Source: an uncultured virus (IMG/VR IMGVR_UViG_3300027542_000007)
Lineage: Duplodnaviria; Heunggongvirae; Uroviricota; Caudoviricetes
Virus record (IMG/VR): IMGVR_UViG_3300027542_000007
Span: 1 to 64,000 of that record
DNA: 64,000 bases
Strand: one strand, 5' to 3'
The notes under the pieces were generated by a model, which saw nothing but the letters and a program-made list of their open reading frames with translations, did not search any database and was not told the DNA's origin. Shown piece by piece: positions 1 to 57,242 of the stretch. Positions within the stretch are counted from its first letter, which is position 1; each line of letters begins with the position of its first letter. A program made the translations under genes and the position numbers.

Positions 1-822
1 AGTGATGCAGATGCAGATGGAGATCATATCTGTTGTTTATTATTGTCATTCTTTATATTGTATATGCCTGGTTTGGTAGAGTCTGGAAGGGTATATCGTG
101 CTGTTCCACCATTATACGGAATTACAATAAAGTCTAAGAATATATACTTCACTCGAAAGATAGACTACATTAAATATGTACAAAAGCTATTCATAAAGGA
201 TAACGATATTAAGTACGGAGATGGAAAAACTATATCCCAAACTGACCTTACAAAGTTATTATACTCGAATATAGATTATGTATACGAGATAGAAAGGATA
301 TCAAATCGATATGCAGTTTCCCCAGAGTTACTTGAAACAGTTCTGATGTTGCATTTAGCTAAGGCCGATTACAACAAGATGAAGAGAGATATAGAGAAAA
401 AATATAGATTTCTTAAAATAACTAATCAGAACGGCGTGCCAATGATTACCGGTTCCTTAGATTTAGCTATTCAGACATTATTCGTGACTGATGTGTTAAT
501 AAAGGATTGCTCAAGGATTATAAATATTCTTGTAAGCAATGCTAATGTGTCCTTTATGGTTAACAATAACAAAGTATTGTTGTATGGATTAATGAAAGGA
601 TTTGATGAATCTAGTCCTAAAAATTTAAGAAGGTTTAAAGGACTTGGAGAGATGGATGGTCCATCATTATACGAATCTACAGTTAATAAGAATACGCGTA
701 CGCTCATTCAGTTTACCACAGAAAATATTAAAGATACCATTGAGAGCATCAGGTACTACGAGAATAATAAAGATAAGCTTCTTGAGGGTATAACAGTATC
801 TAGATTTGATGTAATAGGATAA
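1..822 (+). CDS. gyrB: DNA gyrase/type IIA topoisomerase subunit B, C-terminal part (5' truncated)
   Basis: Frame open from base 1: SDADADGDHI (TOPRIM DxDxDG), PPLY, RFKGLGEM. Confidence 0.93.
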   Translation, partial: SDADADGDHICCLLLSFFILYMPGLVESGRVYRAVPPLYGITIKSKNIYFTRKIDYIKYVQKLFIKDNDIKYGDGKTISQTDLTKLLYSNIDYVYEIERISNRYAVSPELLETVLMLHLAKADYNKMKRDIEKKYRFLKITNQNGVPMITGSLDLAIQTLFVTDVLIKDCSRIINILVSNANVSFMVNNNKVLLYGLMKGFDESSPKNLRRFKGLGEMDGPSLYESTVNKNTRTLIQFTTENIKDTIESIRYYENNKDKLLEGITVSRFDVIG

Positions 823-2872: not shown

Positions 2873-3062
2873 ATTGAATCTATGTTTCAGAATTATAATC
2901 TTCGCGGGAAAATGAATCTTAGGTTCTATATAGTAATCTGTTTTCGCGTATGAATCTGCGGCATTAAATTTTAATCTTGTTGGCAGAATGAATCTTATGT
3001 ATGATATAGTAATCTGTTCTCGTGTATGAATCTGCGGCATTAAATTTTAATCTTGTTGGCAA
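2873..3062 (+). repeat. TIGR-like guide-RNA array: 5 units of 38 nt (NATGAATCT - 9-nt spacer - WATWDTAATCT - 9-nt spacer)
   Basis: Units start at 2873, 2911, 2949, 2987, 3025; spacer pairs atgtttcag/tcgcgggaa, taggttcta/gttttcgcg, gcggcatta/tgttggcag, tatgtatga/gttctcgtg, gcggcatta/tgttggcaa. Confidence 0.9.
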
Positions 3063-3070
3063 AAGGTTTA

Positions 3071-3120
3071 AATAAATATAGGCTGAGAATAATAAATTTC
3101 TCAGCCTATATTTATTTTTT
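3071..3120 (+). terminator. Intrinsic terminator closing the Tas+array transcript
   Basis: AATAAATATAGGCTGAGA/TCTCAGCCTATATTTATT stem plus T tract. Confidence 0.8.
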
Positions 3121-3126
3121 GTATTA

Positions 3127-3134
3127 TATATTAT
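3127..3134 (+). promoter_or_regulatory. TATATTAT early-promoter-like motif; also at 14417, 18358, 33640, 52307, 57195 (+) and 51657-51664 (-)
   Basis: Recurs in intergenic DNA shortly upstream of genes including RNAP subunits and DNA polymerase; resembles phiKZ/AR9 early promoter cores. Confidence 0.6.
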
Positions 3135-3167
3135 ATTTATGATTATCTATGAAAGGAGGAGGTTATA

Positions 3168-3896: not shown

Positions 3897-6287
3897 ATGC
3901 CAGAAACGATAATACAACAAGATGCTGCTGTATCACATAAGAATAGTATGGGGAACTATGCCATTGAAGTTAACCTTAGAAGATCAACTCCAGATGCAAA
4001 GGATGGATTGAAATTAGTTCATAGGCGTATATTGGACGTCATGTTTAATGATGAACCTTGTGCTGAGAAGTTAGTAAAAACGTCTGCAGTTGTAGGTACT
4101 ACGATGAAAAAGTCCCATCCGCACGGAGATGCTTCTATAGGAGATGCTATTAAACCGATGGTAAACTGGTGGGAGATAGGAATACCGTTAATAGATACAA
4201 GGTCGAACTATGGTAATTTCCACGGTAAAGGAGCAGCAGCACCTCGATATACAGAGATAAAATTATCACAATTCTGTTTGGATTGTGTAATTGGGGATTT
4301 AAGAAAATCCAAAAATATTGTAGATTGGGTAGATACTTTTGACTATAGGGATAAAGAGCCAGAATATTTTCCGGTAAAAGTCCCGTTGCTATTAATAAAT
4401 GGAACATTTGGTATTGGGGTTGGTATTAAAACTGAGATTCCTAAGCATCCTATTAATGAAGTCATAGATGCAACTCTTAGAGTTATAGAAGACCCGTCTG
4501 CCCCAGTGGTGTTGGTTCCCGACACTTGTATGCCATGTGAAATAGTAGAAGCGAATTGGAAAAAGATTTGCAACACTGGACATGGAAAGTATAAAGTAAG
4601 AGGTATTATTGATATTGAACAGAATAAAGATGGTTCATATTCACTGATAATAAAGTCAGTCCCAGATAGAGTATATTTCGATAGAGGGAATGCTGAGAAT
4701 GGTGGCGTTAAATATGTCATACTTAAAATGGTAGAAGAGAAGAAACTTCCTCAAATAATGAGTATTGACATAGATTCCAAAGGAACAGATATGAGAATAA
4801 TCATCCGTCTAAGAAAAGGAGCGGACCCCAATTTTGTGAGGGATATGATTTATAAAAACACTCAGATGGAAAGCCCATATAGTGTTAACTTTGAAACTCT
4901 AGATGGAATCAAACCCCTCAGGATGTCATATAAATCTTATATTGAGTTCTTTATAGAACAAGCAAAGACGAACAAGTTTAGACTATACGCCAATAAGCTT
5001 CAAAAGGCAAATACTCGATATCATAAGATAACCTCTTATATAGAGATATTAAAATCAGATAAGCTTCAGGAAATGCTCAAAGTAATGCAGACAATGAAGG
5101 AAATAAACGATAAAGCATTGATGGAAAAATTAATTAAGAAATTCGGCATTAGCGATATTCAAGCAGAGTTTTTAATTAATTCAACTTATAAGACTTCGTC
5201 AATAGCATATCGTTTATCATATGAGAAAGAGGCAAAAGCATTAGAAGAGGATATTAAGCATTTCATTGATATGATTACTATTGATGAATTGATTATTCAA
5301 GAGATAGTAGATGAGCTCAAATATTTTAAGAAGAAATATGGACAGCCTAGACGAAGTAAAGTTATAAAGATTAAAGACCTATCTCATATACCAGAAGGGC
5401 AATTTAATATCGTCATAACCGAAGCCGGGTTCGTCAGAAAATTATCTCCTTTTGATGCTGTTAATAACATTAAAGGAGATGCTCCTAAGCATGTTATGAC
5501 TGTAGAGAATACAGAGAATATATTGTTGTTTACAGCATCTGGTAAGGTATTTAATGTTCCAATACACAAGATTCCGGTAACGGAAAAAAGTGGAGTAGGA
5601 ACTGACTTAAGATTACTAGTAAAAGGATTAGTCAGTGATATAGTGGAAATCATGTATCTTCCCATGGTGAAAGAACGTGCTAATGATGCTAAGAATAAAT
5701 ACTTTATAATGACTCTTACCGAAGGTAATTGTATAAAGAAAATGGATTTAGATGATTTTCTTAATGTGCCGCCATCTGGAATCTTATTCACAAAGATTAA
5801 TTCTGGTGATAGAGTTATTGATGTAAAAATCGTGTCTAAGGATTCTGATATAATAGTATGGTCAGATAGGAAGGCTTTACGTATGAAAGCTGAATCTGTT
5901 CCTCACTTCAGAAGAAATACTTTAGGCGTTGGCGCTATGAGTGGTAAAGATCATATTGATGGATTTACTGAAGTTCGTAAAGATATTACTGATGTCTTAG
6001 TAATAACTAATTCTGGAAGGGTTAATCGATTTGATATTATAGGGTTGCCGTTATCAGATAGATATAAAGCCGGCTCCAATGTGGTTAAACTAGGAAAAAC
6101 TGATAGTATACATTCTATACTATGCTGTAATTCAAATGATATGGTACTAGTCACTTCTAAAGTTGGAGACACAGAATATCCCGTGAGTTCTATAAAGACG
6201 GGCTCTAGTATATCTGCTGGAGAAAAAGTAATACCTCTGAAAAATGATGTAATATTAAAAACAAAAATTCTCAGTAACCCGAACTAA
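3897..6287 (+). CDS. gyrA: DNA gyrase/type IIA topoisomerase subunit A
   Basis: PDAKDGLKLVHRRIL, HPHGD, catalytic AAAPRYTE, LLINGTFGIGVG, C-terminal beta-pinwheel-like repeats. Confidence 0.95.
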   Translation: MPETIIQQDAAVSHKNSMGNYAIEVNLRRSTPDAKDGLKLVHRRILDVMFNDEPCAEKLVKTSAVVGTTMKKSHPHGDASIGDAIKPMVNWWEIGIPLIDTRSNYGNFHGKGAAAPRYTEIKLSQFCLDCVIGDLRKSKNIVDWVDTFDYRDKEPEYFPVKVPLLLINGTFGIGVGIKTEIPKHPINEVIDATLRVIEDPSAPVVLVPDTCMPCEIVEANWKKICNTGHGKYKVRGIIDIEQNKDGSYSLIIKSVPDRVYFDRGNAENGGVKYVILKMVEEKKLPQIMSIDIDSKGTDMRIIIRLRKGADPNFVRDMIYKNTQMESPYSVNFETLDGIKPLRMSYKSYIEFFIEQAKTNKFRLYANKLQKANTRYHKITSYIEILKSDKLQEMLKVMQTMKEINDKALMEKLIKKFGISDIQAEFLINSTYKTSSIAYRLSYEKEAKALEEDIKHFIDMITIDELIIQEIVDELKYFKKKYGQPRRSKVIKIKDLSHIPEGQFNIVITEAGFVRKLSPFDAVNNIKGDAPKHVMTVENTENILLFTASGKVFNVPIHKIPVTEKSGVGTDLRLLVKGLVSDIVEIMYLPMVKERANDAKNKYFIMTLTEGNCIKKMDLDDFLNVPPSGILFTKINSGDRVIDVKIVSKDSDIIVWSDRKALRMKAESVPHFRRNTLGVGAMSGKDHIDGFTEVRKDITDVLVITNSGRVNRFDIIGLPLSDRYKAGSNVVKLGKTDSIHSILCCNSNDMVLVTSKVGDTEYPVSSIKTGSSISAGEKVIPLKNDVILKTKILSNPN

Positions 6288-6305: not shown

Positions 6306-7760
6306 TTGTTAGAAAGAGTGGTGAATACTTTGTTTGAAGCTAATGAATATTATTCGTTAGACGAAGAGTCGGCCCATTACAATTTATTAAAAATTATTAA
6401 GGGCTCTACTTCTTCTGCTAAAACACTGTTTGACATTTCTACTAAACTTGATAGAAGAATGATATTTGCAAATAATATTATTTCAATCAGATGGGGCGAT
6501 AACAAAAGAAATGGAGCATATATGTTATTTAATTCGATGGCAGATAGACGATTCTGTGCCCGCCGTCGTAATCTTAGAACGATACGTACTGATAAAATGC
6601 TAATAATAGGAATTGATAAGGAGGAGGCTAAATACGATATGAATGCTAATATTAAAAATAAAATATATGATTTTGCAAAGTTACAAATCTTAAATAAATT
6701 TCACACTAGTACAAGATTAAATTTAAATCAAGAATCAATGATTAGATTCTTAAAGTGGTTATCTAAATATGATAAAAAGTGGAAAACTCGTATTAAAAGA
6801 ATTTCAAAATACGAATATGAGTTTAGAATTGTCGATTATTTTATTATAATAGATGGTAATACCATAGTAAGGTTAAGAACCGGAGATGCTATAAAAAGTG
6901 CAATGAATACTTATGATATACTTAACGGAGGATCATTTATATCATATAAAACCATTCTTGTAGATATATATGGTAAACAATGCTTTGCCCTAATAAAGTT
7001 ATTTGATTCTTTAACAAGTTTTAGAAAAAGTATTGGGTGTTATACTGTATCTCATTCTTCTAATCGTGATCCTAATGTAGAAGTATATTATAAATCATTA
7101 AGTACAAGAAGCAAAGAAACCGTATTTATGAATAAAGATATAAATAACCGATTGTTTGCTCATATCGATAGGTTCCTTTCAAACAAGAATAAATATAAAT
7201 CCAGAGATTTGTTATATAAGACCGGAATCCTGTTATATGGAGAACCAGGAACTGGAAAATCTACAATATCTAGAATGATTTGTACAGAATATGATTTAGA
7301 TATGATTATTATTGATATGAGTAATTTTTGTAAAATGAATATTGATTATATTACCAACAGTATTAATGCTGATGGAAATATGTATGTGATAGTATTAGAA
7401 GACATTGATAGAGTAATGGATAATGCTGAAACTGATAAATATGAAGCTGTCAACAAATTACTTCAATTTTTGGATTCATCGTCCTCTCCTACTAATGTAA
7501 TATTTATAGCTACTACTAATCATTTAGATAGATTAGATCCTGCTATTACACGTGACGGTAGGTTTGATCTTGCGCTTAACGTAGGAAGTATTAACAAAGG
7601 ACCAGCTTTAAATATGATTAAATCGTTTGATGTGAATGAATCAGATGCAGAAGAATTATGGAATAAAAATAACGTTAACGGTACAGTAAATCCGGCAAAA
7701 TTACAAAATAAAATTTTGCAGTTCCAAGGAGAAAAAGAATTAGAATTACAGGAGGATTAA
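6306..7760 (+). CDS. AAA+ ATPase (BCS1-like C-terminal domain)
   Basis: GILLYGEPGTGKS, IVLEDID, TTNHLDRLDPAITRDGRFD. Confidence 0.9.
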   Translation: MLERVVNTLFEANEYYSLDEESAHYNLLKIIKGSTSSAKTLFDISTKLDRRMIFANNIISIRWGDNKRNGAYMLFNSMADRRFCARRRNLRTIRTDKMLIIGIDKEEAKYDMNANIKNKIYDFAKLQILNKFHTSTRLNLNQESMIRFLKWLSKYDKKWKTRIKRISKYEYEFRIVDYFIIIDGNTIVRLRTGDAIKSAMNTYDILNGGSFISYKTILVDIYGKQCFALIKLFDSLTSFRKSIGCYTVSHSSNRDPNVEVYYKSLSTRSKETVFMNKDINNRLFAHIDRFLSNKNKYKSRDLLYKTGILLYGEPGTGKSTISRMICTEYDLDMIIIDMSNFCKMNIDYITNSINADGNMYVIVLEDIDRVMDNAETDKYEAVNKLLQFLDSSSSPTNVIFIATTNHLDRLDPAITRDGRFDLALNVGSINKGPALNMIKSFDVNESDAEELWNKNNVNGTVNPAKLQNKILQFQGEKELELQED

Positions 7761-13281: not shown

Positions 13282-13704
13282 ATGCTTTTAAGAAATGAAA
13301 GTCGAGTTAGGCATTTTGTGGAAATTAATTTGACATATGATGATAAGGAAAGTAATAATCTAATAGTTAATGAAGGAGATAACGTAGCTATCAGTTTTAG
13401 AAAAAATGGAAGGATAGCTATGGGAGAAGGAAAGATTACAGAAATAAAGGTGCAGCATAGAGCAAGATGTAACGGTTTTGGAATGAAGGAAACTGCCATC
13501 TTAGAAATAGATATGTCTGGTGATTGCAATTCACAAACTGAAAGTGTTGATATACGAGATATAATAGACATTAGAAAATTAGTTCCAAAGCATTGTCATA
13601 AATGCGATAAAGTAGATCCTAGCTTTATAGTTAAGCCTAAAGATAAAGATACGATTGGAGTGGTCGGGATGCCAATATCTCCAGGGGGTGTAATAGGTGA
13701 ATAA
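13282..13704 (+). CDS. Hypothetical protein, apparent paralog of 43526-44149
   Basis: EGDNVAISF..GKITEIKV..LEIDMS..DIRDIIDIR resembles VGEMVSIQF..GRVMDIKV..VLDCS..KMIDILQIR. Confidence 0.75.
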   Translation: MLLRNESRVRHFVEINLTYDDKESNNLIVNEGDNVAISFRKNGRIAMGEGKITEIKVQHRARCNGFGMKETAILEIDMSGDCNSQTESVDIRDIIDIRKLVPKHCHKCDKVDPSFIVKPKDKDTIGVVGMPISPGGVIGE

Positions 13705-14404
13705 AAAGCAAAGAGAAGAAATAGAAGAACTTATAATAAGTTCTTTTAATATCTTGGACAAATCTGGTACTAATTCAGAGTATTACAAAGATTTGTTTAG
13801 TAAAATGAGTGATTCTCAATTTCATTCATTTATTGCAAAGAAATATCCTGGTAAATTTTATTATCGCCCATCAGTTACTGAACCTACGATGGATGACATA
13901 GAAGAAGCATTGAACTTTATTGGTGTTCCCTTAAGCGAGAAGATTAATATGCCTTGGGTTTATGAGGATAAGGATGGAAATCCAGTGCAGTCTAAAGAAT
14001 GTACAGTTGTATATTTACATCATAAAAAGGTCCAGCAATTCATAACAAAGAAAAATAAATGGGCTATTTCTGTATCTAACAGAGATATGAAGGGTGGGCG
14101 CTTAATTGGAGCAGATAAAGGTGCTGTAACATCAGATAGAGAATTTGAATCTATGGAAGTTCAGTCTATGAATAATACCGTTGACGAGTTCTCTACGTTT
14201 AGGGCGGACTCTATGAAGTCTAAGAATATGGCTAATGCAATAATTGGGACTACCGGTGTATTACATTTAGATGATGTAAAGGTAGATAAAGATGATTTCC
14301 TATCTAAGAACCTAATGAGTGCTTATATGATTGGAGCCCATTTGAATACGAATATCGTAAATGAGGGTAATTATACTCCGACTACATTAAGATCGAAATC
14401 TTAA
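13697..14404 (+). CDS. RNA polymerase beta C-terminal fragment (probably virion RNAP)
   Basis: VYLHHKKVQQFITKK and GAVTSDREFESM resemble beta Y..KL.H.V..K and GGQRFGEME. Confidence 0.6.
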   Translation: MNKKQREEIEELIISSFNILDKSGTNSEYYKDLFSKMSDSQFHSFIAKKYPGKFYYRPSVTEPTMDDIEEALNFIGVPLSEKINMPWVYEDKDGNPVQSKECTVVYLHHKKVQQFITKKNKWAISVSNRDMKGGRLIGADKGAVTSDREFESMEVQSMNNTVDEFSTFRADSMKSKNMANAIIGTTGVLHLDDVKVDKDDFLSKNLMSAYMIGAHLNTNIVNEGNYTPTTLRSKS

Positions 14405-14447
14405 TATTTTCATTTATATATTATATTTTTGAAGGAGGTGAGTATAA

Positions 14448-14564: not shown

Positions 14565-14674
14565 GTACATATGGGTATGGGAGGGATTCCATACCCATAA
14601 AATTTTCTGATAGTAACACATTAAGAAATGTGTAACTATAAATCAATAACACAATAAAATGGAGGTATAAAAGA

Positions 14675-15913
14675 ATGAATGTAAAATGTATTGGTATTGG
14701 AGCCGCAGGAAATAAGGCGGCAATTACTCTGGTGGAAAAGAAAGTACTGGCACAGGATAATGTATTATTAATCAATTCTACATTAAAGGATATCCCTGCA
14801 GATTACAAGGGGCTGGCTGTGGAATATGTTAATTCTTATGGCGGCTGCGGGAAAGAAAGAAAAAATGCGTATGATCTTGCAGTAAACTCCATTAAGGCTG
14901 GAAAGATCCCGCTGGATGATTTTCTCAATATTGGAAAAAGCAATGAGGCGGAGCTGGTAATCATTGTAACTTCAACTGAAGGCGGTACAGGTTCTGGTTC
15001 ATCAATTATTATTGGTAAGTATATTAAGAGCCATTACGACATCGATGTGCATATGTTCGGATTTGTTGGGTTCAAGACCGACCCAAGGGGTCTGAAGAAT
15101 ACAGTAGAGTGGTTTTCGGAGCTGCAGGAAGATTTTGCGGTGGAAGCTGTTGAGAACAGCAAGTACTTACCAGAATGCCGTGGAAACAAGATCAAAGCAG
15201 AGAAGATGGCGAACGAAGACTTTGCTAACAAGATTGGCATTCTGATCGGAAATACAATCAGATATTCAGAGCACAATATCGACCCGACTGATCTTCTTAA
15301 AGTGTCTGCAAAGCAGACTGGATTTATGGTAATTGAATCTGCGAATTTTGAGAAGATCAAAAACAAAGAACAGTTCGAGGCGATGGTTGTCCGTATGATT
15401 GACGATAGCAAATCAGTTGATGTGAGCAATGTTAATGCTAAGAAATCTGCGGTGTTCCTGAATATTAGTCCGGCTTCTACTGATTTTATCTCTTATGAAG
15501 AAATCATTACCGAGAGGTATGGGGAGAGATATGAGAATTACGAGCATATTCAGCACGAAGCTGATATGCCAGAGTTCTTTGCGATTATCATTGCTGGTAT
15601 GAAAATGCCGGTAGAAGAAATCCAAAGAGTATATACCGAATATAAAGACCGCATGGGGCAGGTTGACCGTTCAGGAGACGACTTCTTTGCATCTGTAAGT
15701 GCATTGTCGTTCGATGATGATGATGATCTGTCGATCCATGGCAAAAAGAAAAAGACTATGAGCGACGATGAGTTCTTTGCGAATCTCGATAAACCAGTTG
15801 ATTCTCCGTCTGCTTCAACAAAAGTCGTGCGGCCATCTGCTGAAGGGAGTGAGTCCAGTGGGAAATTCTCTAATGTAAGAGTAGAGAAAGCAGACATCGC
15901 AAAAGAATATTAG
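14675..15913 (+). CDS. Tubulin/FtsZ-family GTPase (PhuZ/TubZ-like)
   Basis: IGIGAAGNKA, GGCGKE, signature GGTGSG, NIDPTDL; long charged C-terminal tail. Confidence 0.9.
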   Translation: MNVKCIGIGAAGNKAAITLVEKKVLAQDNVLLINSTLKDIPADYKGLAVEYVNSYGGCGKERKNAYDLAVNSIKAGKIPLDDFLNIGKSNEAELVIIVTSTEGGTGSGSSIIIGKYIKSHYDIDVHMFGFVGFKTDPRGLKNTVEWFSELQEDFAVEAVENSKYLPECRGNKIKAEKMANEDFANKIGILIGNTIRYSEHNIDPTDLLKVSAKQTGFMVIESANFEKIKNKEQFEAMVVRMIDDSKSVDVSNVNAKKSAVFLNISPASTDFISYEEIITERYGERYENYEHIQHEADMPEFFAIIIAGMKMPVEEIQRVYTEYKDRMGQVDRSGDDFFASVSALSFDDDDDLSIHGKKKKTMSDDEFFANLDKPVDSPSASTKVVRPSAEGSESSGKFSNVRVEKADIAKEY

Positions 15914-15921
15914 GAGGAATT

Positions 15922-16785
15922 ATGTTTGATAATTATCAATATAGTGAAGGAGGGACCCCAGAGGTTCCTCTTTCATTTTCTTACAACAGTATTGAAGAAG
16001 TCATTAATATGCTAAGGCATGTTGATGACTATAGTGACCGGGACCTATATGAACTAGTTAAGAAAACCTATTCTATGATCCTGGACGAGATTTTCACTAT
16101 TAAAAACGTAGACCTAATCAGGATGCTGTATAACACTCCAAAGTTTATAACAGCATTAACTGCAGTATTAGGAGAAGTAGAATTAAACCAGATTCAATTT
16201 ATTTGGTGTAACAAATTAACATATGACTATTTCACATCGACTGCTGAAAAGAACTTATATGTTAAGGCTTTGCTTTTGCAGCTAAGTTCTACAGTTAATA
16301 GAAGATACACTCCAGGTTTAATCGGACTGGGCTTAAACGAAAATCTAGTAAGTTATCTAGTAAACGCAAGATTCTCAACCGAGAAAGAGGATATTCAAGT
16401 AAAAAGATTAAATCTCATATTAATGAATCAAAGCCCAGACATAATGACACTACAGATGATTGTAGACATTTATGGTAAGCTCTTTGATAGGATAACTCCT
16501 CTGTTTTCGGGGATTATGTATGATTATTGGGAACCGGAGTCTTTAATGAATGATAGCATAGCGGAAGTTTATGCTACTATTACTATGGCTATAATAACTA
16601 TCGTAAACAATCTTCCGCAAGATTTATGCTTGCAGTTATTAAAGAGCTTTGCGGAATCTCATTGCATAGTAAATATTGGAAAGTCTGTTAGGTTTAATAT
16701 ATATGCAATTGTCGAAGAGGATTTTCCGAGATTATATTTATGCTTAAAAATATTAAAGGCAAACAATATTGTGCTGCCGTCATAA
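15922..16785 (+). CDS. Hypothetical protein
   Basis: AGGAGG RBS, 287 aa. Confidence 0.8.
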   Translation: MFDNYQYSEGGTPEVPLSFSYNSIEEVINMLRHVDDYSDRDLYELVKKTYSMILDEIFTIKNVDLIRMLYNTPKFITALTAVLGEVELNQIQFIWCNKLTYDYFTSTAEKNLYVKALLLQLSSTVNRRYTPGLIGLGLNENLVSYLVNARFSTEKEDIQVKRLNLILMNQSPDIMTLQMIVDIYGKLFDRITPLFSGIMYDYWEPESLMNDSIAEVYATITMAIITIVNNLPQDLCLQLLKSFAESHCIVNIGKSVRFNIYAIVEEDFPRLYLCLKILKANNIVLPS

Positions 16786-16792
16786 TAAGTAT

Positions 16793-16987
16793 AACTAATC
16801 TTAATGAGAAAATTATAATCTGATGGAGCAAATGAATCTATATAGTGGGATTTTAATCTAGTGTCATGCATGAATCTACCCTTCAAAATTATAATCTAGG
16901 CAGAAAGATGAATCTAACCATGATAATTTTAATCTGAAACTCCAAATGGATCTCAACATCAGAATTTTAATCCGGATTGTTAAATGG
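16793..16987 (+). repeat. Orphan TIGR-like array, 5 units of 38 nt
   Basis: Units at 16793, 16831, 16869, 16907, 16945; spacer pairs taatgagaa/gatggagca, atatagtgg/agtgtcatg, acccttcaa/aggcagaaa, aaccatgat/gaaactcca, caacatcag/ggattgtta; same repeats as 2873-3062. Confidence 0.9.
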
Positions 16988-16989
16988 TT

Positions 16990-17026
16990 ACCAGAGTACC
17001 TAAATGGGTACTCTGGTTTATTTTTT
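16990..17026 (+). terminator. Intrinsic terminator after the orphan array
   Basis: ACCAGAGTACC/GGTACTCTGGT stem plus T tract. Confidence 0.8.
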
Positions 17027-17068
17027 ATCATCTCCGAAACATTTTAATAAAATGAAAGGAGAGATAAG

Positions 17069-18304
17069 ATGTATTCATTATTAGACGGATTTAGAGAGAG
17101 GACTTTGAAGTCTAAGGATAGCCGAATGTCGCAAGAGACAGTGCCTGACGTAGCGTATTCTACTGGATTTCTTGGATTTGATTTTATGAATGGTACCGTT
17201 GTACATGTAAAAACACCAGAGAAAAAATTTGCATATAATTCAATAGGAATAGTAGATGGCTCTATTACAATGGTAATCGGGAGATCTGGTTGTGGTAAGA
17301 CCACATGGGTTGTTCAGTCTGCTGGATATATTATGAAACAATTCCCAGGAGCACAAACCTGGCATGATGACATCGAGGGAGGTATTGTAGAAACTAGAAG
17401 AGAGAGACTTGTTGGATTATTCGGTAATAGTATGAAAGATAGATACCTATCCAGAAACTCAGGAGTTACTGCAGAGAGTGTGTATGAACGTATAAAGATT
17501 ATTCATGACCTTAAAATGGAAAATAGAGAAGATTACGAATATGATACTGGATACTATACATCTGGCGGAGAAAAGATTATTAAACTTCAACCGAGTGTCT
17601 ATATTCTCGATTCTTTAGCAATGCTTACTCCAGACAAATATACAGAGGAAGAAGAATTATCTGGGCAAATGTCATCCACAGCAGCAGCAAAAACAAATGC
17701 CAGTGTATTTAAAAGAATTGTTCCACTTCTTAAAAGTGCAAATATCATGCTATTTGTAATCAATCATATCACTGATGCTATAAAGATTAGTATGTTTGAT
17801 TCAAAGCCTGCGCAATTGTCTTATCTTAAGCAGGGTGAATCTTTACCAGGAGGGAAAACTCCAGTTTACTTATCGAATCTTTTAATTAGATTTGATGATA
17901 ATACTAAGCTTAAAGAATCAGAAGGTTTAAAGATAAGTGGTAGTATAGTAGACATATCATTACTTAAATCTAGAACTTCAAATGTTGGGAAATCAGTTCC
18001 TCTTATATTTGACTTTAAAAATGGATTTGATAGAGATTTATCTTTGTTACAGCTTCTCAAAGATATGAAGAAAGTCAATGGGGCTGGAGCTTATCTTTAC
18101 TTTGGGGATAGAAGCGATAAGAAATTCTCCCAGAAACAATTTAAAGAGAAACTCATTGAAGATGATGAATTTAGAGCAGTATTCATGGAAACAGCTCTTG
18201 AATCTCTTAAAGATCTTCTTTACGACCCAGGGGAGATGCCAGATGTGGGATCCAACGTGATAGATATCACTGGTAGAATATTAGATATGATGAAAGTAGC
18301 GTAA
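17069..18304 (+). CDS. RecA/UvsX-like recombinase
   Basis: YSTGFLGFD, GRSGCGKTT, ILDSLAML, FVINHI, PGGK. Confidence 0.88.
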   Translation: MYSLLDGFRERTLKSKDSRMSQETVPDVAYSTGFLGFDFMNGTVVHVKTPEKKFAYNSIGIVDGSITMVIGRSGCGKTTWVVQSAGYIMKQFPGAQTWHDDIEGGIVETRRERLVGLFGNSMKDRYLSRNSGVTAESVYERIKIIHDLKMENREDYEYDTGYYTSGGEKIIKLQPSVYILDSLAMLTPDKYTEEEELSGQMSSTAAAKTNASVFKRIVPLLKSANIMLFVINHITDAIKISMFDSKPAQLSYLKQGESLPGGKTPVYLSNLLIRFDDNTKLKESEGLKISGSIVDISLLKSRTSNVGKSVPLIFDFKNGFDRDLSLLQLLKDMKKVNGAGAYLYFGDRSDKKFSQKQFKEKLIEDDEFRAVFMETALESLKDLLYDPGEMPDVGSNVIDITGRILDMMKVA

Positions 18305-18407
18305 AGTATATGGGAGATGCCTCACCGAGGCATCTCTCGAAACAATTCATTTGAATATATATTATATTCATGAAATAAAATACGAATGAAAGAGGGACGA
18401 AAATACT

Positions 18408-20615
18408 ATGCAAAATTTTCATGAAATTATGGAAAAAGAATCTGAACGAATAAGCTCGCTTGAACAGGTTCTCGGTAAAGGACTATACCAACCGTTTTCA
18501 ATATCTAATTCTGGTTCCAGAAAAGTATTGTTTAGTACCCAGTTGGACCACTCCATCCCGTTGCTTAATCCGGAAATTCCAATAATTTCTACAGGATATG
18601 AAAACAAGTATGGAGATTACTCAGCATCTATTATTAAGATGGATGATGATTACGAGGTAATAAAGAAAATTTCTAAGTTTTCTCGTATTCCTAATCATCA
18701 GTATTTATTAATAATAAAAAATAAGAATACTGGTCAATTAGATGTGTTAGAGAGAATCATGTACAAGAACAAAACTGAATCTTATGGGTATCTATATGAT
18801 ACTAAAATAATGGATGAATTAGACGAAGGGTATACTATTAGAAAAGGAGAGACGGTAAGGTCATCTAAAGCGTATGACGGATATATGAATCGTTGCGATG
18901 GAGTGAATCTCAAAGTGTCATATATATGCCAAGACAAAACTATGGAAGATGGCATCAGAGTTTCTCAATCTGCAGCTATTAAATTATCTTCTCCATTTAT
19001 TAAGAAAATCCCCCCAGTATTTCTTAATGATAATGATATACCTCTTAACTTATATGGAGATAGCGATACGTATAAATGCTTCCCAGATATAGGAGAGAAA
19101 GTTAATGGTGGATTGGTATTTGCTACAAGAAGAGAAAATCAGGACGATATTTTATATACGCAATCAATAGAAATGCTCAAACAGGTATTAATGAGCGATT
19201 CAAAGTATATAGTATCTGGGGATTCAGAGATAATTGATATAGATATCCAGACGAATAATCCAGATATGCTTGGAAAGTTTCAGAATAGCCAGTTAAATTA
19301 TTACTATGAGGAGAAACAAAGATACCTGTTTGAAATTATAACTACAGTAGAATCCCTTGCGGCAAAAGGAGATAACTATATATCATATGAATTAGAAAAG
19401 TTGTATGTTGAAGCCAAAAGACAATTTCAGAATACAGAGTATTTATATGATAAAACATTCTCTGGCACCATGTTAGAGATTACCATACTAGAAAGAAACA
19501 TTCCATCTGTAGGAGATAAACTTTCTAATAGATATGGAGGAAAAGGAGTAATATCCGAAATAGTATCCGATAATCTAATGCCCATAGATAAGGATACCGG
19601 GAAGGCAGTAGATATTTCATTTAATAGTTCCACATGTGTAAACAGATTAAATGATGGGCAATTGAAAGAACAGTCTTTGACCCATATAGGCTCTAGAATT
19701 ATCCAGTATATAGTACAATCTGGAATGGTACAAAATACGGATGCAGCTCTAGCACACATTGTAAAATTTGTTTTATTATGTTCTCCTCTTTATGGTAGAG
19801 TGTTGGATAGCATGATATTAGAGATGAGTGATGAAGACAGAGATATTTATCTTCAAAATATAATAGACAGTGGTTATATTGCTTTGTGTATCAAGCCGGC
19901 TAGTGAAAACCTGACCCTGGATCAATTAGATGTGATTTATAAAGAGTTCCCGTATGTTAAGCAAAGAGAAATGATGGTGCCTATAAAGGATAGTAATGGT
20001 AATATAAGATACGTACCATCTAGACGTCGTATAGTGGTTGGAGATATGTATATCTACAGATTGAAACAATATGCGGAAGAAAAATTCTCAGTAACAAGTT
20101 TATCATCTGTGAATATTAGAAATGAAAATACAAGGTCTAAGCTTTCAAAGAACTATAAGAGTTTGCACTCTAATACTCCTATTAAGTTTGGAGATATGGA
20201 AAGTAATGATCTAGGCCATGCTGGTATTGAAAATGTATTAGCTATACTGATGATTCATTCAGTGTCTCCACAGGCAAGAAGATTAGTTTATGAAATGCTT
20301 ACAGATGACCCATACAATATTGATATACGACTCTCGGACAATGCGGTAAACCGTACAGCACAAATAGCAAATATATATCTTAAAACAATGGGATATCGTC
20401 TAAAGTTTATCAAGATCAAAAAGAAGATACTCCATGGGTTATATAAAAAGGGTATGGTATATCATTGGGGAGATAAAGAGCTTCCTCGCGGCATGACTTA
20501 CATCAGTGACGAAGAAGAGTATGATTTCGATAAGAATTATCAAAGAATGCTTGAAGCCGAAGAAGAGTTTGCTAAACGAGGAATGGTATACGAAGGTATG
20601 CATTATGAACCATAA
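18408..20615 (+). CDS. RNA polymerase beta subunit, C-terminal half (probably non-virion RNAP)
   Basis: MEDGI, VGDKLSNRYGGKGVIS, YIYRLKQ, KFGDME. Confidence 0.92.
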   Translation: MQNFHEIMEKESERISSLEQVLGKGLYQPFSISNSGSRKVLFSTQLDHSIPLLNPEIPIISTGYENKYGDYSASIIKMDDDYEVIKKISKFSRIPNHQYLLIIKNKNTGQLDVLERIMYKNKTESYGYLYDTKIMDELDEGYTIRKGETVRSSKAYDGYMNRCDGVNLKVSYICQDKTMEDGIRVSQSAAIKLSSPFIKKIPPVFLNDNDIPLNLYGDSDTYKCFPDIGEKVNGGLVFATRRENQDDILYTQSIEMLKQVLMSDSKYIVSGDSEIIDIDIQTNNPDMLGKFQNSQLNYYYEEKQRYLFEIITTVESLAAKGDNYISYELEKLYVEAKRQFQNTEYLYDKTFSGTMLEITILERNIPSVGDKLSNRYGGKGVISEIVSDNLMPIDKDTGKAVDISFNSSTCVNRLNDGQLKEQSLTHIGSRIIQYIVQSGMVQNTDAALAHIVKFVLLCSPLYGRVLDSMILEMSDEDRDIYLQNIIDSGYIALCIKPASENLTLDQLDVIYKEFPYVKQREMMVPIKDSNGNIRYVPSRRRIVVGDMYIYRLKQYAEEKFSVTSLSSVNIRNENTRSKLSKNYKSLHSNTPIKFGDMESNDLGHAGIENVLAILMIHSVSPQARRLVYEMLTDDPYNIDIRLSDNAVNRTAQIANIYLKTMGYRLKFIKIKKKILHGLYKKGMVYHWGDKELPRGMTYISDEEEYDFDKNYQRMLEAEEEFAKRGMVYEGMHYEP

Positions 20616-20704: not shown

Positions 20705-23068
20705 TTGAATTCTTTGAGCTTAGACTTGAGTCAAATCATTAGAGACTGGCAGCAAGGAAAGCGCATTGAATATTGGCGTAACGAATTGCTTTCAAATAGT
20801 TCCCAAATTAACGAATATGTCGTGTCATTATTAAGAGGACCAATCTTACCTTGTAATCTTCCGTCTACTATAGAGTATAATGTACGTAATATTTTGATTA
20901 TATCAAATATATTGTATAATAATACAAATGCAAGTGCATTATTATTGGAAGATGGTATTTATGATAAATTGGTAACCTTTTACCATTATTATACTGGTAA
21001 AGATGTAGTAGGTGCAATACCAGTACGATTTAAAGATACAGTGGAAAAGAAATCTGAAACTGTAATGATTAAGGGAATGGAATATTTGAATAGTGATTAT
21101 GACAATAAGTTCTTTGAGAACTCATTATTCTTCGAGGACTTATATCATAATGCTCCGTTCAACCCGGAAGTATCTCTATATCCGGGTATGACATATGATA
21201 ATACAGTTACAAAAAGAATTAGAAATACAACACATGCGAATCCAGAATTAGTTGGAACTTTGGATAAATGCAAATTCTGTTTAGTTTCTCAAGCAAGGAA
21301 TACAGATCCAAAGTTATTGGATGATCCAACTGTAAAGATCGTAGAAAGAGATTTCTTTGCAAAACACATAGAGGAAGGATTGATAAATCCAAATGAAATA
21401 ATTGATGTGTGTTTGGAACTGAAGTACGACGGAGTATCAATAGAAGCTACAATATTCAATGATAAAATTGTTCGAGCCGGGACACGTGGAGATACTGAAG
21501 CTGATTTAGCATCTGATTTGACTCCTATTTTGAAAGGGTATAGGATGCCTAGAGCATTGCCTTTGAACAAGGAGATCAATGTCAAATTTGAAGCTATTAT
21601 GACATACTATAATTTGCAAAAATACTCAGAAGCTAAAGGAAGAGACTTTATTAATGGGAGAACAGCCATTATTTCTTGGATAGGTTCTTCAGACGCGTAT
21701 AACTACAGAGAGCTAATTACTCTAGTACCACTGGCTACAGATTTAGTTGACGAAAACGGACAGCATATAGACAGGCTTGTAGAAATAGAGTTCATGAATA
21801 AATTCCTTACAAGAACCGAGTTACTTAGGTATTCAGTTATAAGTGGGAATTTTGAAAGTGTACTATATCAAGTATATAAGTACTCTAAAGAAGCCGAATA
21901 TATGAGAAAGCTTATTCCGTTTATGTATGACGGAATTGTTATATCATATCTTGATCCAAGAATTCGTCAAGCATTGGGCAGAAAATCGTTTATTAATAAA
22001 TATACGATAGCCCTAAAATTTGAGCCGCTGGTCAGAAGGACCCGGTTTGATCATTATACCTTTGAAGTTGGGCAGAATGGGGTCATCACCCCACGGATTT
22101 GGTATGATCCTGTGGAGTTTTTTGGCTCCATTCATCCAAAATCTTCTGGGCACTCATATGGAAGATTTAAAACTTTATCTCTTAGGAAAGGAGATTTAAT
22201 CGATGTCACCTATCGAAACGACGTCATGCCATATGTAACAAAGGCAGATTGTATAGAGAATGATAATAATCCTAATCCTATAATAGAGTTTCCGAAATTC
22301 TGTCCGGAATGCAATACTGAACTCAAGTTTACAGATTCCTCCGCCAGATGTCCAAATCCAAAGTGCAAAGCAGTGATGAGGAAGAAGCTCACGAATATGA
22401 TGGCTAAGCTCCAGTTTAATGGGTTTGCTGAAGAAACTATAAATCAGCTTAATATAAACTCATTTCATGAACTTATGCAATTGAAGCTACAAGATGTGGA
22501 ATTCCTTGGACCATTAACCGCGCAATCGTTAATAGCTCAAATTGAAGAATTGAAAGTTAAGGGGTTGCCAGACTATGTTTTAGTTGGGGCTCTCGGGTTT
22601 ACGAATTGTGCTGCCGCAGTTTGGAAAAAGATATTTTCTGTCATCACATTGCACCAGCTTATTGAGTTAGCTGATCTTAATTATATAGATGGAGTAGACG
22701 ATATATGGTATATACTTGTAGATATTCCATCTATAGGAGAAAAGATAGCTCAAACGATTTGTTACGAGATTCCGGACTATATAGCAGATCTTATGTATAT
22801 AAGGGATCACGTTAGGTATAAGATTACCTATGGAAGCAAATCAGTAAAGATGCGATTCACCGGATTTAGAGATAAAGACTTAGCTGGTAGACTTGTAGAG
22901 GCAGGAGTGGATTTGTCAGAGGGATCAGTTACAAAGGATACAACTTTCTTAGTTGTTCCCTATGAAGGTTACAATACAGGAAAGAAATATAAAGATGCCA
23001 ATAAATATGGGGTGCCGATTATTACCAGAAATGATTTGGAAGAGCATTTTTCCAATTATACAAGTTAA
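20705..23068 (+). CDS. ligA: NAD-dependent DNA ligase
   Basis: ELKYDG adenylation motif, TRGD, DGIVI, ALKF, CPEC...CPNPKC zinc finger, C-terminal BRCT (SVTKDTTFLV). Confidence 0.93.
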   Translation: MNSLSLDLSQIIRDWQQGKRIEYWRNELLSNSSQINEYVVSLLRGPILPCNLPSTIEYNVRNILIISNILYNNTNASALLLEDGIYDKLVTFYHYYTGKDVVGAIPVRFKDTVEKKSETVMIKGMEYLNSDYDNKFFENSLFFEDLYHNAPFNPEVSLYPGMTYDNTVTKRIRNTTHANPELVGTLDKCKFCLVSQARNTDPKLLDDPTVKIVERDFFAKHIEEGLINPNEIIDVCLELKYDGVSIEATIFNDKIVRAGTRGDTEADLASDLTPILKGYRMPRALPLNKEINVKFEAIMTYYNLQKYSEAKGRDFINGRTAIISWIGSSDAYNYRELITLVPLATDLVDENGQHIDRLVEIEFMNKFLTRTELLRYSVISGNFESVLYQVYKYSKEAEYMRKLIPFMYDGIVISYLDPRIRQALGRKSFINKYTIALKFEPLVRRTRFDHYTFEVGQNGVITPRIWYDPVEFFGSIHPKSSGHSYGRFKTLSLRKGDLIDVTYRNDVMPYVTKADCIENDNNPNPIIEFPKFCPECNTELKFTDSSARCPNPKCKAVMRKKLTNMMAKLQFNGFAEETINQLNINSFHELMQLKLQDVEFLGPLTAQSLIAQIEELKVKGLPDYVLVGALGFTNCAAAVWKKIFSVITLHQLIELADLNYIDGVDDIWYILVDIPSIGEKIAQTICYEIPDYIADLMYIRDHVRYKITYGSKSVKMRFTGFRDKDLAGRLVEAGVDLSEGSVTKDTTFLVVPYEGYNTGKKYKDANKYGVPIITRNDLEEHFSNYTS

Positions 23069-55571: not shown

Positions 55572-57191
55572 ATGAAAGTAGACGTTTTTAATACTTCTAT
55601 TGTAATTAGTGATTACGAGTGGGACAGTTGTCTAACACTTCAAAATAATTTTAAAATAAGAATACCAGTTACTGTAAGTTATACGACATATGGGTATTTT
55701 GGTATTTATTATGATAAGGAAAACAAAAAGCTTTACCTTCCAAGAGGGATAGATATATGGTATCTTGAGTCTATATTAAATACTACAGCAATTATTCATA
55801 AGAATGAAGCATATAAATATGATAGATATAACGATTTTAGAGTAAAGAAAATGCCAAGAGACGAAGTACAGGAACAAGCTCTGAGATTTATGGTTGGAAG
55901 GGGAGAATACAGGTCTACAGCAACAAAAAGCCAGTTATCATTAAATCTTAACACAGGGAAGGGTAAAACGTATGTTGCTATATCTACAATAGCAATATTG
56001 CGTATGAAGGCTTTGATAATTATGTACTCCACAAATTTAATTGAACAGTGGAAAGAGGAAATCTTAAATATAACCAATTTGACAAATAAACAGGTCAAGA
56101 TTGTATCTGGTTCTATTAATATTAAAAGGCTGTTGAGCAAAGATTCAGATGATGGTGTTATATATCTAATCACGCACGGAACGTTGGAAAGTTATGCCAA
56201 GACAAACGGATGGGAAGCCGTTGGAGAATTTGTTAAGCATTTAAAGGTAGGCATCAAGATATTCGATGAAGCACATCAAAATTTTGAAAATCTGTTAATG
56301 ATAGATTTCTTTACCAATGTGTATAAAAATTACTATCTTACTGCTACAGCTTTACGTTCGTCTACAGATGAAGATAAGATTTATCAATTAAGCTTTAAGA
56401 ATGTTCCACAAATAGATTTATTTGATGAAGAGACTGATCCACATACTAGATACACTGCTATTAAATTTTCATCTAATCCATCTGCTATAGAGATGTCTAG
56501 CTGTAAAAATCAATATGGTTTAGATAGAAATAAGTATGTAGATTATCTGGTTTCTAAGCCTAAGTTTTATAGCATATTAAGAATAATGATGGATATAGCT
56601 ATCAAAAGAACAAATAATGGTGGCAAGTGTTTAATGTATATAGGCACCAATGCAGCTATACAAAAAGTATATGAATGGATGGTGCATAATTATTCATGGT
56701 TAGAAAACGATATTGGTATTCTAAGCACGTTGGTATCAAGTGAGGAACGAAAAAGAAACACAGAGAAAAGAATCATGCTGTCCACAACCAAATCAGCGGG
56801 TACTGGAATAGATATTAAAGGGTTAGTATTAACCATACTTTTAGCTGAGCCATTCAAGTCCGGAGTATTAGCTAGACAAACTCTTGGGAGAACCAGAGAT
56901 TCCGATACAGAATATATAGAACTAGTCGATACATCATTTCCGCAATGTAGAAAATATTATGGATTCAAGAAACCTATATTCTTAAAATATGCTACTGATT
57001 GTAGAGAAATGATAATGACTGATGATTTTATTGACTGTAAATTATTAGATTTATACGCTGGGTCTATACGTGAATTCATAGAACGTAATTATTATAATTG
57101 GAATGTACCTGGAATGGTATATAATTGTGGTTTAACTCCCGGGATGATTTATGACTATGGACTAACTCGGGGGATGGTTTATGATGAATAG
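55572..57191 (+). CDS. Superfamily 2 helicase
   Basis: NTGKGKT, FDEAH, LTAT, GTGIDI, QTLGRTR. Confidence 0.9.
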   Translation: MKVDVFNTSIVISDYEWDSCLTLQNNFKIRIPVTVSYTTYGYFGIYYDKENKKLYLPRGIDIWYLESILNTTAIIHKNEAYKYDRYNDFRVKKMPRDEVQEQALRFMVGRGEYRSTATKSQLSLNLNTGKGKTYVAISTIAILRMKALIIMYSTNLIEQWKEEILNITNLTNKQVKIVSGSINIKRLLSKDSDDGVIYLITHGTLESYAKTNGWEAVGEFVKHLKVGIKIFDEAHQNFENLLMIDFFTNVYKNYYLTATALRSSTDEDKIYQLSFKNVPQIDLFDEETDPHTRYTAIKFSSNPSAIEMSSCKNQYGLDRNKYVDYLVSKPKFYSILRIMMDIAIKRTNNGGKCLMYIGTNAAIQKVYEWMVHNYSWLENDIGILSTLVSSEERKRNTEKRIMLSTTKSAGTGIDIKGLVLTILLAEPFKSGVLARQTLGRTRDSDTEYIELVDTSFPQCRKYYGFKKPIFLKYATDCREMIMTDDFIDCKLLDLYAGSIREFIERNYYNWNVPGMVYNCGLTPGMIYDYGLTRGMVYDE

Positions 57192-57242
57192 TTATATATT
57201 ATATTCATGAATACAAAAATATAATAAGGAGGTCGTCTGGTT

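Follow-up and report, generated by a model that had tools for sequence, protein, structure and literature searches.

How a guide array that lies far from any effector gene could be expressed, and which protein it could serve, is the question raised by a short repeat region in the genome of an uncultured Caudoviricetes phage. In dual-repeat TIGR arrays, two alternating repeats of 8–12 nt are combined with 9-nt spacers (Faure et al. 2025, PMC12045711), and in the published descriptions such arrays lie upstream, downstream, flanking or inside tas. The text of Xu et al. (2026, 10.64898/2026.09.09.750476) describes arrays 'surrounding tas loci' (flank of at most 10 kb, median 5.4 kb). However, the array considered here lies 13.9 kb away from tas, and another array of the same phage lies 56 kb away. 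The word 'orphan' is absent from the text of both papers, and the locus figures of PMC12045711 could show a distant array. Among the matches listed in a literature search on TIGR-Tas and tigRNA, no title deals with remote arrays, and in the papers searched by text none pairs 'TIGR array' with 'orphan' in this sense.

The window, i.e. the whole stretch of DNA that was analysed, comprises 64,000 nt of IMG/VR record IMGVR_UViG_3300027542_000007, and all coordinates refer to it unless another record is named. From its sequence it had been proposed that an orphan array sits in the 3' UTR of a tubulin operon, and that guides are supplied in trans from arrays that use the transcripts of other genes (hereafter, the original prediction). 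Here, we report a computational analysis of this array, of the genome that carries it and of its relatives.

A canonical dual-repeat TIGR array between a stop codon and a terminator

The features of the region are as follows.

14570-14599, + strand: terminator-like hairpin at the end of the preceding unit, taken as the 5' limit of the tubulin-like one
14675-15913, + strand: tubulin/FtsZ-like gene (TubZ/PhuZ type), first of a two-gene unit; three weak, consistent matches
15922-16785, + strand: ORF of 287 aa without a family match; the array begins 8 nt past its stop
16794-16983, + strand: remote ('orphan') dual-repeat TIGR array, five 38-nt units; 84 of 90 repeat positions agree with the 27-unit consensus
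16984-16987, + strand: terminal edge repeat, 3'-truncated (ATGG), as published for the ends of TIGR arrays (PMC12045711)
16990-17029, + strand: intrinsic terminator after the array (hairpin 16990-17017), 12-bp stem, 4-nt loop and T-run
17069-18304, + strand: UvsX-like recombinase gene (phrog_97, E 1.3e-36), a new unit after the terminator

The region at 16794-16983 is a real, canonical dual-repeat TIGR array. Its units begin at 16794, 16832, 16870, 16908 and 16946; each is exactly 38 nt long and in phase, and consists of an edge repeat ATGAATCT, 9 nt (spacer A), a loop repeat RATTWTAATCT, 9 nt (spacer B) and 1 nt. With an edge of 8 nt, a loop of 11 nt and spacers of 9 nt, this layout falls within the dual-repeat type. 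Both repeats contain AU...AAUCU, i.e. they share their box D and box C, which is the kind of edge/loop covariation of the two boxes reported in PMC12045711. Agreement with the consensus repeats is 18, 17 and 18 of 18 positions in units 2, 3 and 4, respectively. Unit 1 has a degenerate edge (ACTAATCT), and unit 5 has the edge ATGGATCT and a loop that ends in ..TAATCC, a changed box C. Published TIGR arrays open with an edge repeat that is truncated and close with a truncated edge followed by a rho-independent terminator (PMC12045711); here, ACTAATCT stands at the start, and ATGG, a hairpin and a T-run stand at the end.

As claimed in the original prediction, the array lies between a stop codon and a terminator. 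The stop of ORF 15922-16785 is the TAA at 16783-16785, directly followed by a second TAA, and the distance of 8 nt to the array is counted from the first. The terminator hairpin at 16990-17017 has a folding energy of -20 kcal/mol (z -5.65), which none of 200 shuffles attains. The RNA of the AT-rich array itself is less structured than its own shuffles, 198 of 200 of which fold equally well or better (z +1.89); this agrees with an array of the dual-repeat type but not with one of the stem-loop type. No Rfam family covers the array, and GenBank phages gave no DNA or protein match.

A pattern for one unit, allowing up to two mismatches, gave 13 matches in the window against 3.46 expected, and five of the 13 are the units of this array; the largest number obtained was 8 in 100 shuffles, none of which reached 13. 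Moreover, the 74.9-kb record has only three places with in-phase chains of at least five ATCT boxes at a spacing of 18–20 nt. The five 38-nt units and the identity of their two repeats with those of the tas-adjacent array were correctly described before, with a start one base too early (16793 instead of 16794). The spacer comparison also bore out that none of the ten spacers is common to the tas-adjacent array, and no pair between these two arrays is found among the 14 closest spacer pairs listed, all of which have at most three mismatches. Position 9 of the spacer is a purine in 49 of the 54 spacers of 27 units from all four arrays of the phage, and in most cases A or T comes next. This leaves a core of probably 8 freely variable nt, not 9, as in SpTasH, and the repeat effectively extends into the spacer. 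No palindromic or direct relation was found between the two spacers within a unit.

A genome of ~229 kb with one tas gene and four arrays

The record of the window (G000, 74,859 b) is part of a longer IMG/VR record, G001 (129,475 b), with one difference in 609 overlapping end bases. Beyond these, a strict two-edge pattern located the repeats of this phage in just two viral records, G007 (55 kb) and G008 (62 kb), both without tas. A metagenome contig of 231,177 b carries three arrays at the expected spacing, has 0 mismatches over 9,628 compared bases, and shows G007 directly in front of G001. The first 44.5 kb are covered by G008, whose overlap of 1,474 b with G007 is free of mismatches. The overlapping records of this phage were joined, so that 229,107 b were read. 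Four of the seven metagenome matches to the strict pattern (L053 and L056-L058; a 1.5-Mb contig and three shorter ones) lie inside one conserved bacterial coding gene and were rejected as chance.

The joined genome contains one tas and four arrays with 28 units. In addition to the array of interest (five units, 8 nt past the stop of ORF 15922-16785), these features are:

56 kb upstream of tas: far-upstream array of 15 units (one degenerate, 34 nt), intergenic, after a divergent gene and behind a promoter-like motif
826-939, + strand: degenerate array of three units, immediately past the stop (820-822) of a topoisomerase II large-subunit-like ORF; its spacers have 20% GC
947-986, + strand: terminator after the three-unit array (-19.7 kcal/mol, z -4.77)
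1753-2868, + strand: tas gene, 371-aa TasA-like protein without nuclease domain (phmmer, Foldseek, AlphaFold model)
2874-3063, + strand: tas-adjacent array, five 38-nt units with the same repeats, 5 nt past the tas stop
3071-3122, + strand: terminator after the tas-adjacent array (-26.2 kcal/mol, z -8.98)

The scan of the genome for the repeats, which had been suggested as a check, gave these four arrays, and scans of G001, G007 and G008 with the unit pattern gave no further array; 20 of the 28 units therefore lie at least 14 kb from tas (14–56 kb). Three of the four arrays begin within ~8 nt of a same-strand stop, and all four are on the transcribed strand and end in strong terminators. The original prediction also held that different guide sets could appear at different infection stages, which is speculative; the arrays do occupy four separate transcription units, and the signals upstream of them are of at least two kinds. 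With the three further arrays (after the topoisomerase gene, after tas and the 15-unit array at 56 kb), the guide repertoire is spread over four transcription units.

Several other observations concern the genome and its arrays. The three-unit array, with its degenerate edges and very AT-rich spacers, may be decaying. Within the tas-adjacent array, units 2-3 and 4-5 (2912-3063) are a recent 76-nt tandem duplication with 92% match. One of its guide pairs is nearly unchanged (GCGGCATTA / TGTTGGCAG versus ..CAA) and the other has diverged at three and two positions, which may offer a glimpse of array growth. A solo edge-like ATGAATCT followed by a hairpin (GGCTCAA...TTGAGCC) is present at 1682-1722, between ORF 1281-1676 and tas. 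The solo 8-mer occurs at background frequency (four + strand sites in 129 kb, ~4.8 expected), and three of these four sites are within 1.1 kb upstream of tas. The phage has a jumbo-phage gene set, with topoisomerase II/GyrA-like genes, several split RNA polymerase beta-like genes, an NAD-dependent ligase and the tubulin-like gene (window 1-822, 3897-6287, 13697-14404, 18408-20615 and 20705-23068; L045 3625-6459). No tRNA was found in the flanking 110 kb. Strong ribosome-binding sites of the GGAGG type point to a possible host among the Bacillota.

The single Tas protein is TasA-like

No Tas gene had been noticed near the array, and this is borne out at the scale of the genome: a profile built from 33 Tas homologues matches once in the 129-kb record, at the known tas 13.9 kb upstream of the array, and 0 times in G007 and in G008. 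By sequence (phmmer), the protein encoded at 1753-2868 resembles TasR (9mty, E 1e-8) and TasH (21kl, E 1e-5). Its AlphaFold model, made with the 33 homologues (pLDDT 86.8), is all-helical without any strand, and its first long helix comes after only ~36 residues, which are poorly ordered. The ten best Foldseek matches of the model in the PDB are without exception TasH or TasR chains (probability 1.00; target-normalised TM 0.48–0.65). Since the model folds like TasH and TasR and yet is all-helical, and no HNH or RuvC family was found by Pfam at E <= 0.01, we read the protein as a TasA-type Tas without nuclease domain.

In SpTasH, Y289 and H296 are the catalytic pair for maturation of the pre-tigRNA (PMC13421893). 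Residues Y349 and H356 of the phage protein align to this pair, in a weak second HMMER domain (4.2 bits); in the alignment with TasR, Y349 stands opposite a Trp. Across the 33 homologues, H356 does not vary, and the conservation of Y349 is at least 90%. Y349/H356 are thus the putative counterpart of the guide-maturing Tyr/His pair.

Relatives with and without tas

The site was compared in related phages, as had been suggested. Among five relatives retrieved with the UvsX-like gene, four of which are at least 90% complete, none carries tas, and a search with TRF at the syntenic site in L011-L021 revealed no array. The closest tas-less relative, L011, encodes a homologue of ORF 15922-16785 (33% identity, E 2e-37) with a terminator 9 nt past its stop and no array between the two. 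The array of the present phage thus fills a slot between the stop of a conserved gene and its terminator. Three tas-less relatives (L015, L016 and L017) have a 33-nt tandem repeat of ~3 copies downstream of the UvsX-like gene, at ~7400-7503 (6111-6213 in L016).

Each of the relatives retrieved with Tas (~41% identity) has arrays close to tas. In the four partial records G003-G006, no true unit lies further than ~3 kb from tas. Many of the 204 Tas homologues are encoded on contigs of 200-270 kb. The ends of the repeats vary among these phages: both are (A/T)TCA in G002, and they are GATTCA and ATATCA in G003-G006. G002, a distant relative of 246,988 b that is 99% complete, has one tas ORF and, in addition, remote arrays with its own repeats: one of ~14 units (158.4 kb), one of ~15 (174.9-175.5 kb) and one of ~3 (186.3 kb), i.e. 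43, 26 and 15 kb from tas, respectively. Each of these consists of a same-strand ORF stop, the array and a terminator. The genes that host the G002 arrays differ from those of the present phage, which indicates that the sites are not inherited positions.

The probable transcription unit that carries the array

The label 'tubulin operon' of the original prediction appears reasonable. ORF 14675-15913 has weak but consistent matches to TubZ/PhuZ proteins (Pfam Tubulin, E 1.3e-5, below the curated cut-off; PDB TubZ 4xcq, E 2.3e-6; PHROG 'tubulin PhuZ', E 2.7e-5), ends 8 nt before ORF 15922-16785, and is bracketed together with it by terminators. The tubulin-like gene, ORF 15922-16785 and the array appear to form a single transcription unit.

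Across the 229 kb, a recurrent promoter-like motif, ATATATTATATWNATGAA, exceeds the threshold at 16 sites, 13 of them on the + strand. They include 3122-3147, 14412-14437, 18353-18378 and 57190-57215 of the window and 15778-15803 of G007, and are mostly intergenic. Because they stand before ribosome-binding sites, we take ATATATTATATWNATGAA to be a probable class of phage promoter. The 15-unit array is immediately preceded by a site above threshold, 9th in rank among the 16, and this instance did not contribute to the matrix. The motif was not found before the other three arrays, and there is no site in 14600-16793. The claim that the array uses the transcript of another gene is therefore supported by anatomy: the 8-nt gap, the lack of the recurrent motif in 14600-16793, and the stop followed by a terminator in the tas-less relative. 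A partial motif-like stretch, ATTATATTTATG, was seen by eye near 16729-16740 and is not above threshold in the motif scoring; a promoter of an unrecognised class may lie inside ORF 15922-16785. A near-perfect palindrome (GTAACACATTAAGAAATGTGTAAC, 14613-14636) between the upstream terminator and the ribosome-binding site of the tubulin-like gene may be an operator or belong to another class of promoter.

Search for targets of the guides

The orientation of the two spacers in a target was deduced from the strand numbering in PMC13421893: the top strand would read spacer A followed directly by the reverse complement of spacer B, without a gap. This is also the layout assumed in the original prediction, and a contiguous target site of 18 bp is confirmed in a yeast preprint. 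We searched both strands of the 229,107 b of the phage with 27 tigRNAs, leaving out the degenerate 34-nt unit. No 18-mer of this layout was found with up to one mismatch; two matches were obtained at two mismatches, against a mean of 0.4 in a re-paired control. The opposite order of spacers also gave 0 matches with up to one mismatch in the 229,107 b, and a pattern of 8+NN+8 gave one match at one mismatch (control 0.5).

In public contigs, exact 18-mers gave the following:

Unit 1, viral contigs: 0 matches
Unit 1, genome contigs: 11 matches in scattered taxa, none in Bacillota; a rough chance estimate is ~17 in 596 Gb
Unit 2, viral contigs: 0 matches
Unit 3, viral contigs: 1 match
Unit 5, viral contigs: 17 matches in ~4 gene groups, mostly phages of 40–58% GC
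Duplicated tas-adjacent guide, viral contigs: 4 unrelated matches

One group of eight contigs matched by unit 5 encodes a TTSVTIP-like peptide. We read the public matches as chance or database redundancy, and short spacers are described to give many false positives (Xu et al. 2026, 10.64898/2026.09.09.750476). The target search that had been suggested with the original prediction has therefore identified no target in the 229 kb of the phage or in public contigs; its matches are at chance level or redundant. The guides are expected to bind and silence DNA of the host or of rivals. Silencing is expected because the Tas protein is nuclease-less and because repression by TasA and by dead TasR has been published.

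A probable working guide array and the alternatives

We estimate a probability of roughly 70% that 16794-16983 is a working TIGR guide array of the single TasA-type protein encoded 13.9 kb away. The supply of guides in trans, as proposed originally, is supported at the genomic level by one tas in ~229 kb, identical repeats, co-occurrence of arrays with tas and the predicted processing residues of Tas; the remote array very probably serves TasA in trans. The array leaves no room for a promoter of its own and, judging from its anatomy, would be transcribed as the 3' tail of the tubulin-like gene and ORF 15922-16785, up to the terminator at 16990-17017. By homology to SpTasH, TasA would recognise the AU...AAUCU boxes of the edge and loop repeats, and its C-terminal Tyr/His would cut inside the edge repeats and release five 38-nt tigRNAs. 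Following the published mechanism, each tigRNA would load a TasA dimer, and its two spacers would pair with opposite strands of a contiguous DNA site of 16–18 bp. As TasA lacks a nuclease domain, the outcome would be DNA binding and a block of transcription and not cleavage, in line with its fold and with the repression published for TasA and dead TasR. The negative self-target search suggests that the targets would be found not in the phage genome but in the host or in competing elements.

Alternatively, the five units could be a translocated or duplicated piece of the tas-adjacent array, now disused and decaying. The imperfect terminal units (ACTAATCT in unit 1; ATGGATCT and ..TAATCC in unit 5) would be consistent with decay, and the same genome does contain a degenerate array (826-939, spacers of 20% GC). 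However, published TIGR arrays as a rule have a degenerate first and last repeat (PMC12045711), units 2–4 match the consensus repeats at 18, 17 and 18 of 18 positions, and the uniqueness of all ten spacers argues that the array is not a copy of the tas-adjacent one. Its own strong terminator has also been kept. Sequencing runs bear on both sides. The one clear RNA run (X20) yielded just one contig, at 14624-14891, which leaves the array uncovered, and a run guessed to be RNA (X16) yielded contigs on both sides and none over 16759-17012; being assembled contigs, they agree with a disused array and say nothing on transcription. Two variant strains that are ~2.6% divergent (runs X5 and X11) span the array and keep its length, without an indel; their only indel in 14600-18400 is a TAA insertion at 17044, just past the terminator. 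Finally, remote arrays of 14–15 units recur in the second phage, G002. We consider it rather unlikely that the array is such a remnant.

The position of the array also allows a role in cis, in which the tubulin-like mRNA would become a substrate of TasA: once accumulated, TasA would cut the edge repeats, remove the protective terminator hairpin and lower expression of the upstream genes, the guides being secondary or absent. It is in keeping with this that seven of the nine arrays in two phages begin no more than 35 nt past the stop of an ORF on their strand (three of the four here and, in G002, those in L072, L073 and L074 and the tas-adjacent one; the single unit in L071 lies 87 nt past a stop), and that tas is itself followed by such an array and would thereby regulate its own expression. 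This role is nevertheless pure inference, and it has no need for diverse unique spacers. Moreover, the 15-unit array has no upstream gene on its own strand, so that guide supply alone suffices to explain an array. A primarily regulatory 3' UTR thus seems quite unlikely to us. It is highly improbable that the region is no guide array at all and consists of iteron-like protein-binding sites at the DNA level or of a chance repeat: this has in its favour only the periodicity and an AT-richness found in many binding-site clusters, whereas the identical 38-nt two-repeat architecture abuts a protein whose best structural matches are all Tas, all four arrays lie on the strand that is transcribed, each with a terminator at its end, no array is seen in the tas-less relatives, and chance is excluded by the shuffles (0 of 100 reach 13).

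Comparison with known systems

The working guide array that we favour resembles the dual-repeat TIGR-TasA systems, e.g. FpTIGR of Flavonifractor plautii (PMC12045711; 10.64898/2026.09.09.750476), in its alternating repeats, short tandem spacers, shared boxes and truncated edge with terminator. It also has a nuclease-less Nop-fold Tas, with a putative C-terminal Tyr/His loop. However, the unit is 38 nt long and not 36. Unlike published TIGR arrays, the array is inserted between the stop of a foreign gene and its terminator.

Orphan CRISPR arrays and the mini-CRISPR arrays of phages rely on effectors encoded elsewhere. The present array likewise lies away from its effector gene and would act in trans, but it differs in guide architecture and protein family, and here the effector is encoded in the same genome and the array sits in the 3' UTR of a protein gene. 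Box C/D snoRNAs are hosted in the transcripts of other genes, either polycistronic or in introns. They share with the present case two antisense elements and the processing of guides from a transcript that has another main product; however, snoRNAs guide RNA methylation with fibrillarin and L7Ae, whereas DNA binding by a TasA dimer is expected here. TIGR has been connected with box C/D before (PMC12045711).

A further likeness is to regulatory RNAs made from the 3' ends of messages with a shared terminator. Bacterial small RNAs derived from 3' UTRs are cut from the 3' end of an mRNA and share its terminator. Those are single RNAs with Hfq-dependent RNA pairing, whereas the phage would produce arrays of protein-loaded DNA guides.

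Implications for TIGR-Tas biology

In the published work, the natural targets and roles of TIGR-Tas are stated as unknown, and the natural biology of these systems is still open. With 20 of 28 units at 14–56 kb from tas and the same habit in G002, surveys that read up to 10 kb around tas would undercount guide repertoires. Tas-centred surveys would also miss the link between guide supply and the promoters of host transcripts.

We tentatively propose a more general picture, which we hold to be possible and as yet doubtful: jumbo phages of this Tas clade would scatter tigRNA arrays into unrelated 3' UTRs, here those of the topoisomerase, tas and tubulin-like operons, and place at least one behind its own promoter, guides would follow the timing of the host transcripts, and cleavage by TasA would feed back on mRNA stability. 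If true, this would amount to a genome-wide, stage-programmed supply of guides for silencing of hosts or rivals, and not to a single locus. The phage occurs in runs labelled mouse gut, and 16 studies, possible source samples included, held it in whole or in part. With one nuclease-less TasA, 28 guides on four units, no self-targeting found and many mouse-gut studies in which it is present, this phage is suited as a natural test system for what a phage silences with TIGR, and when.
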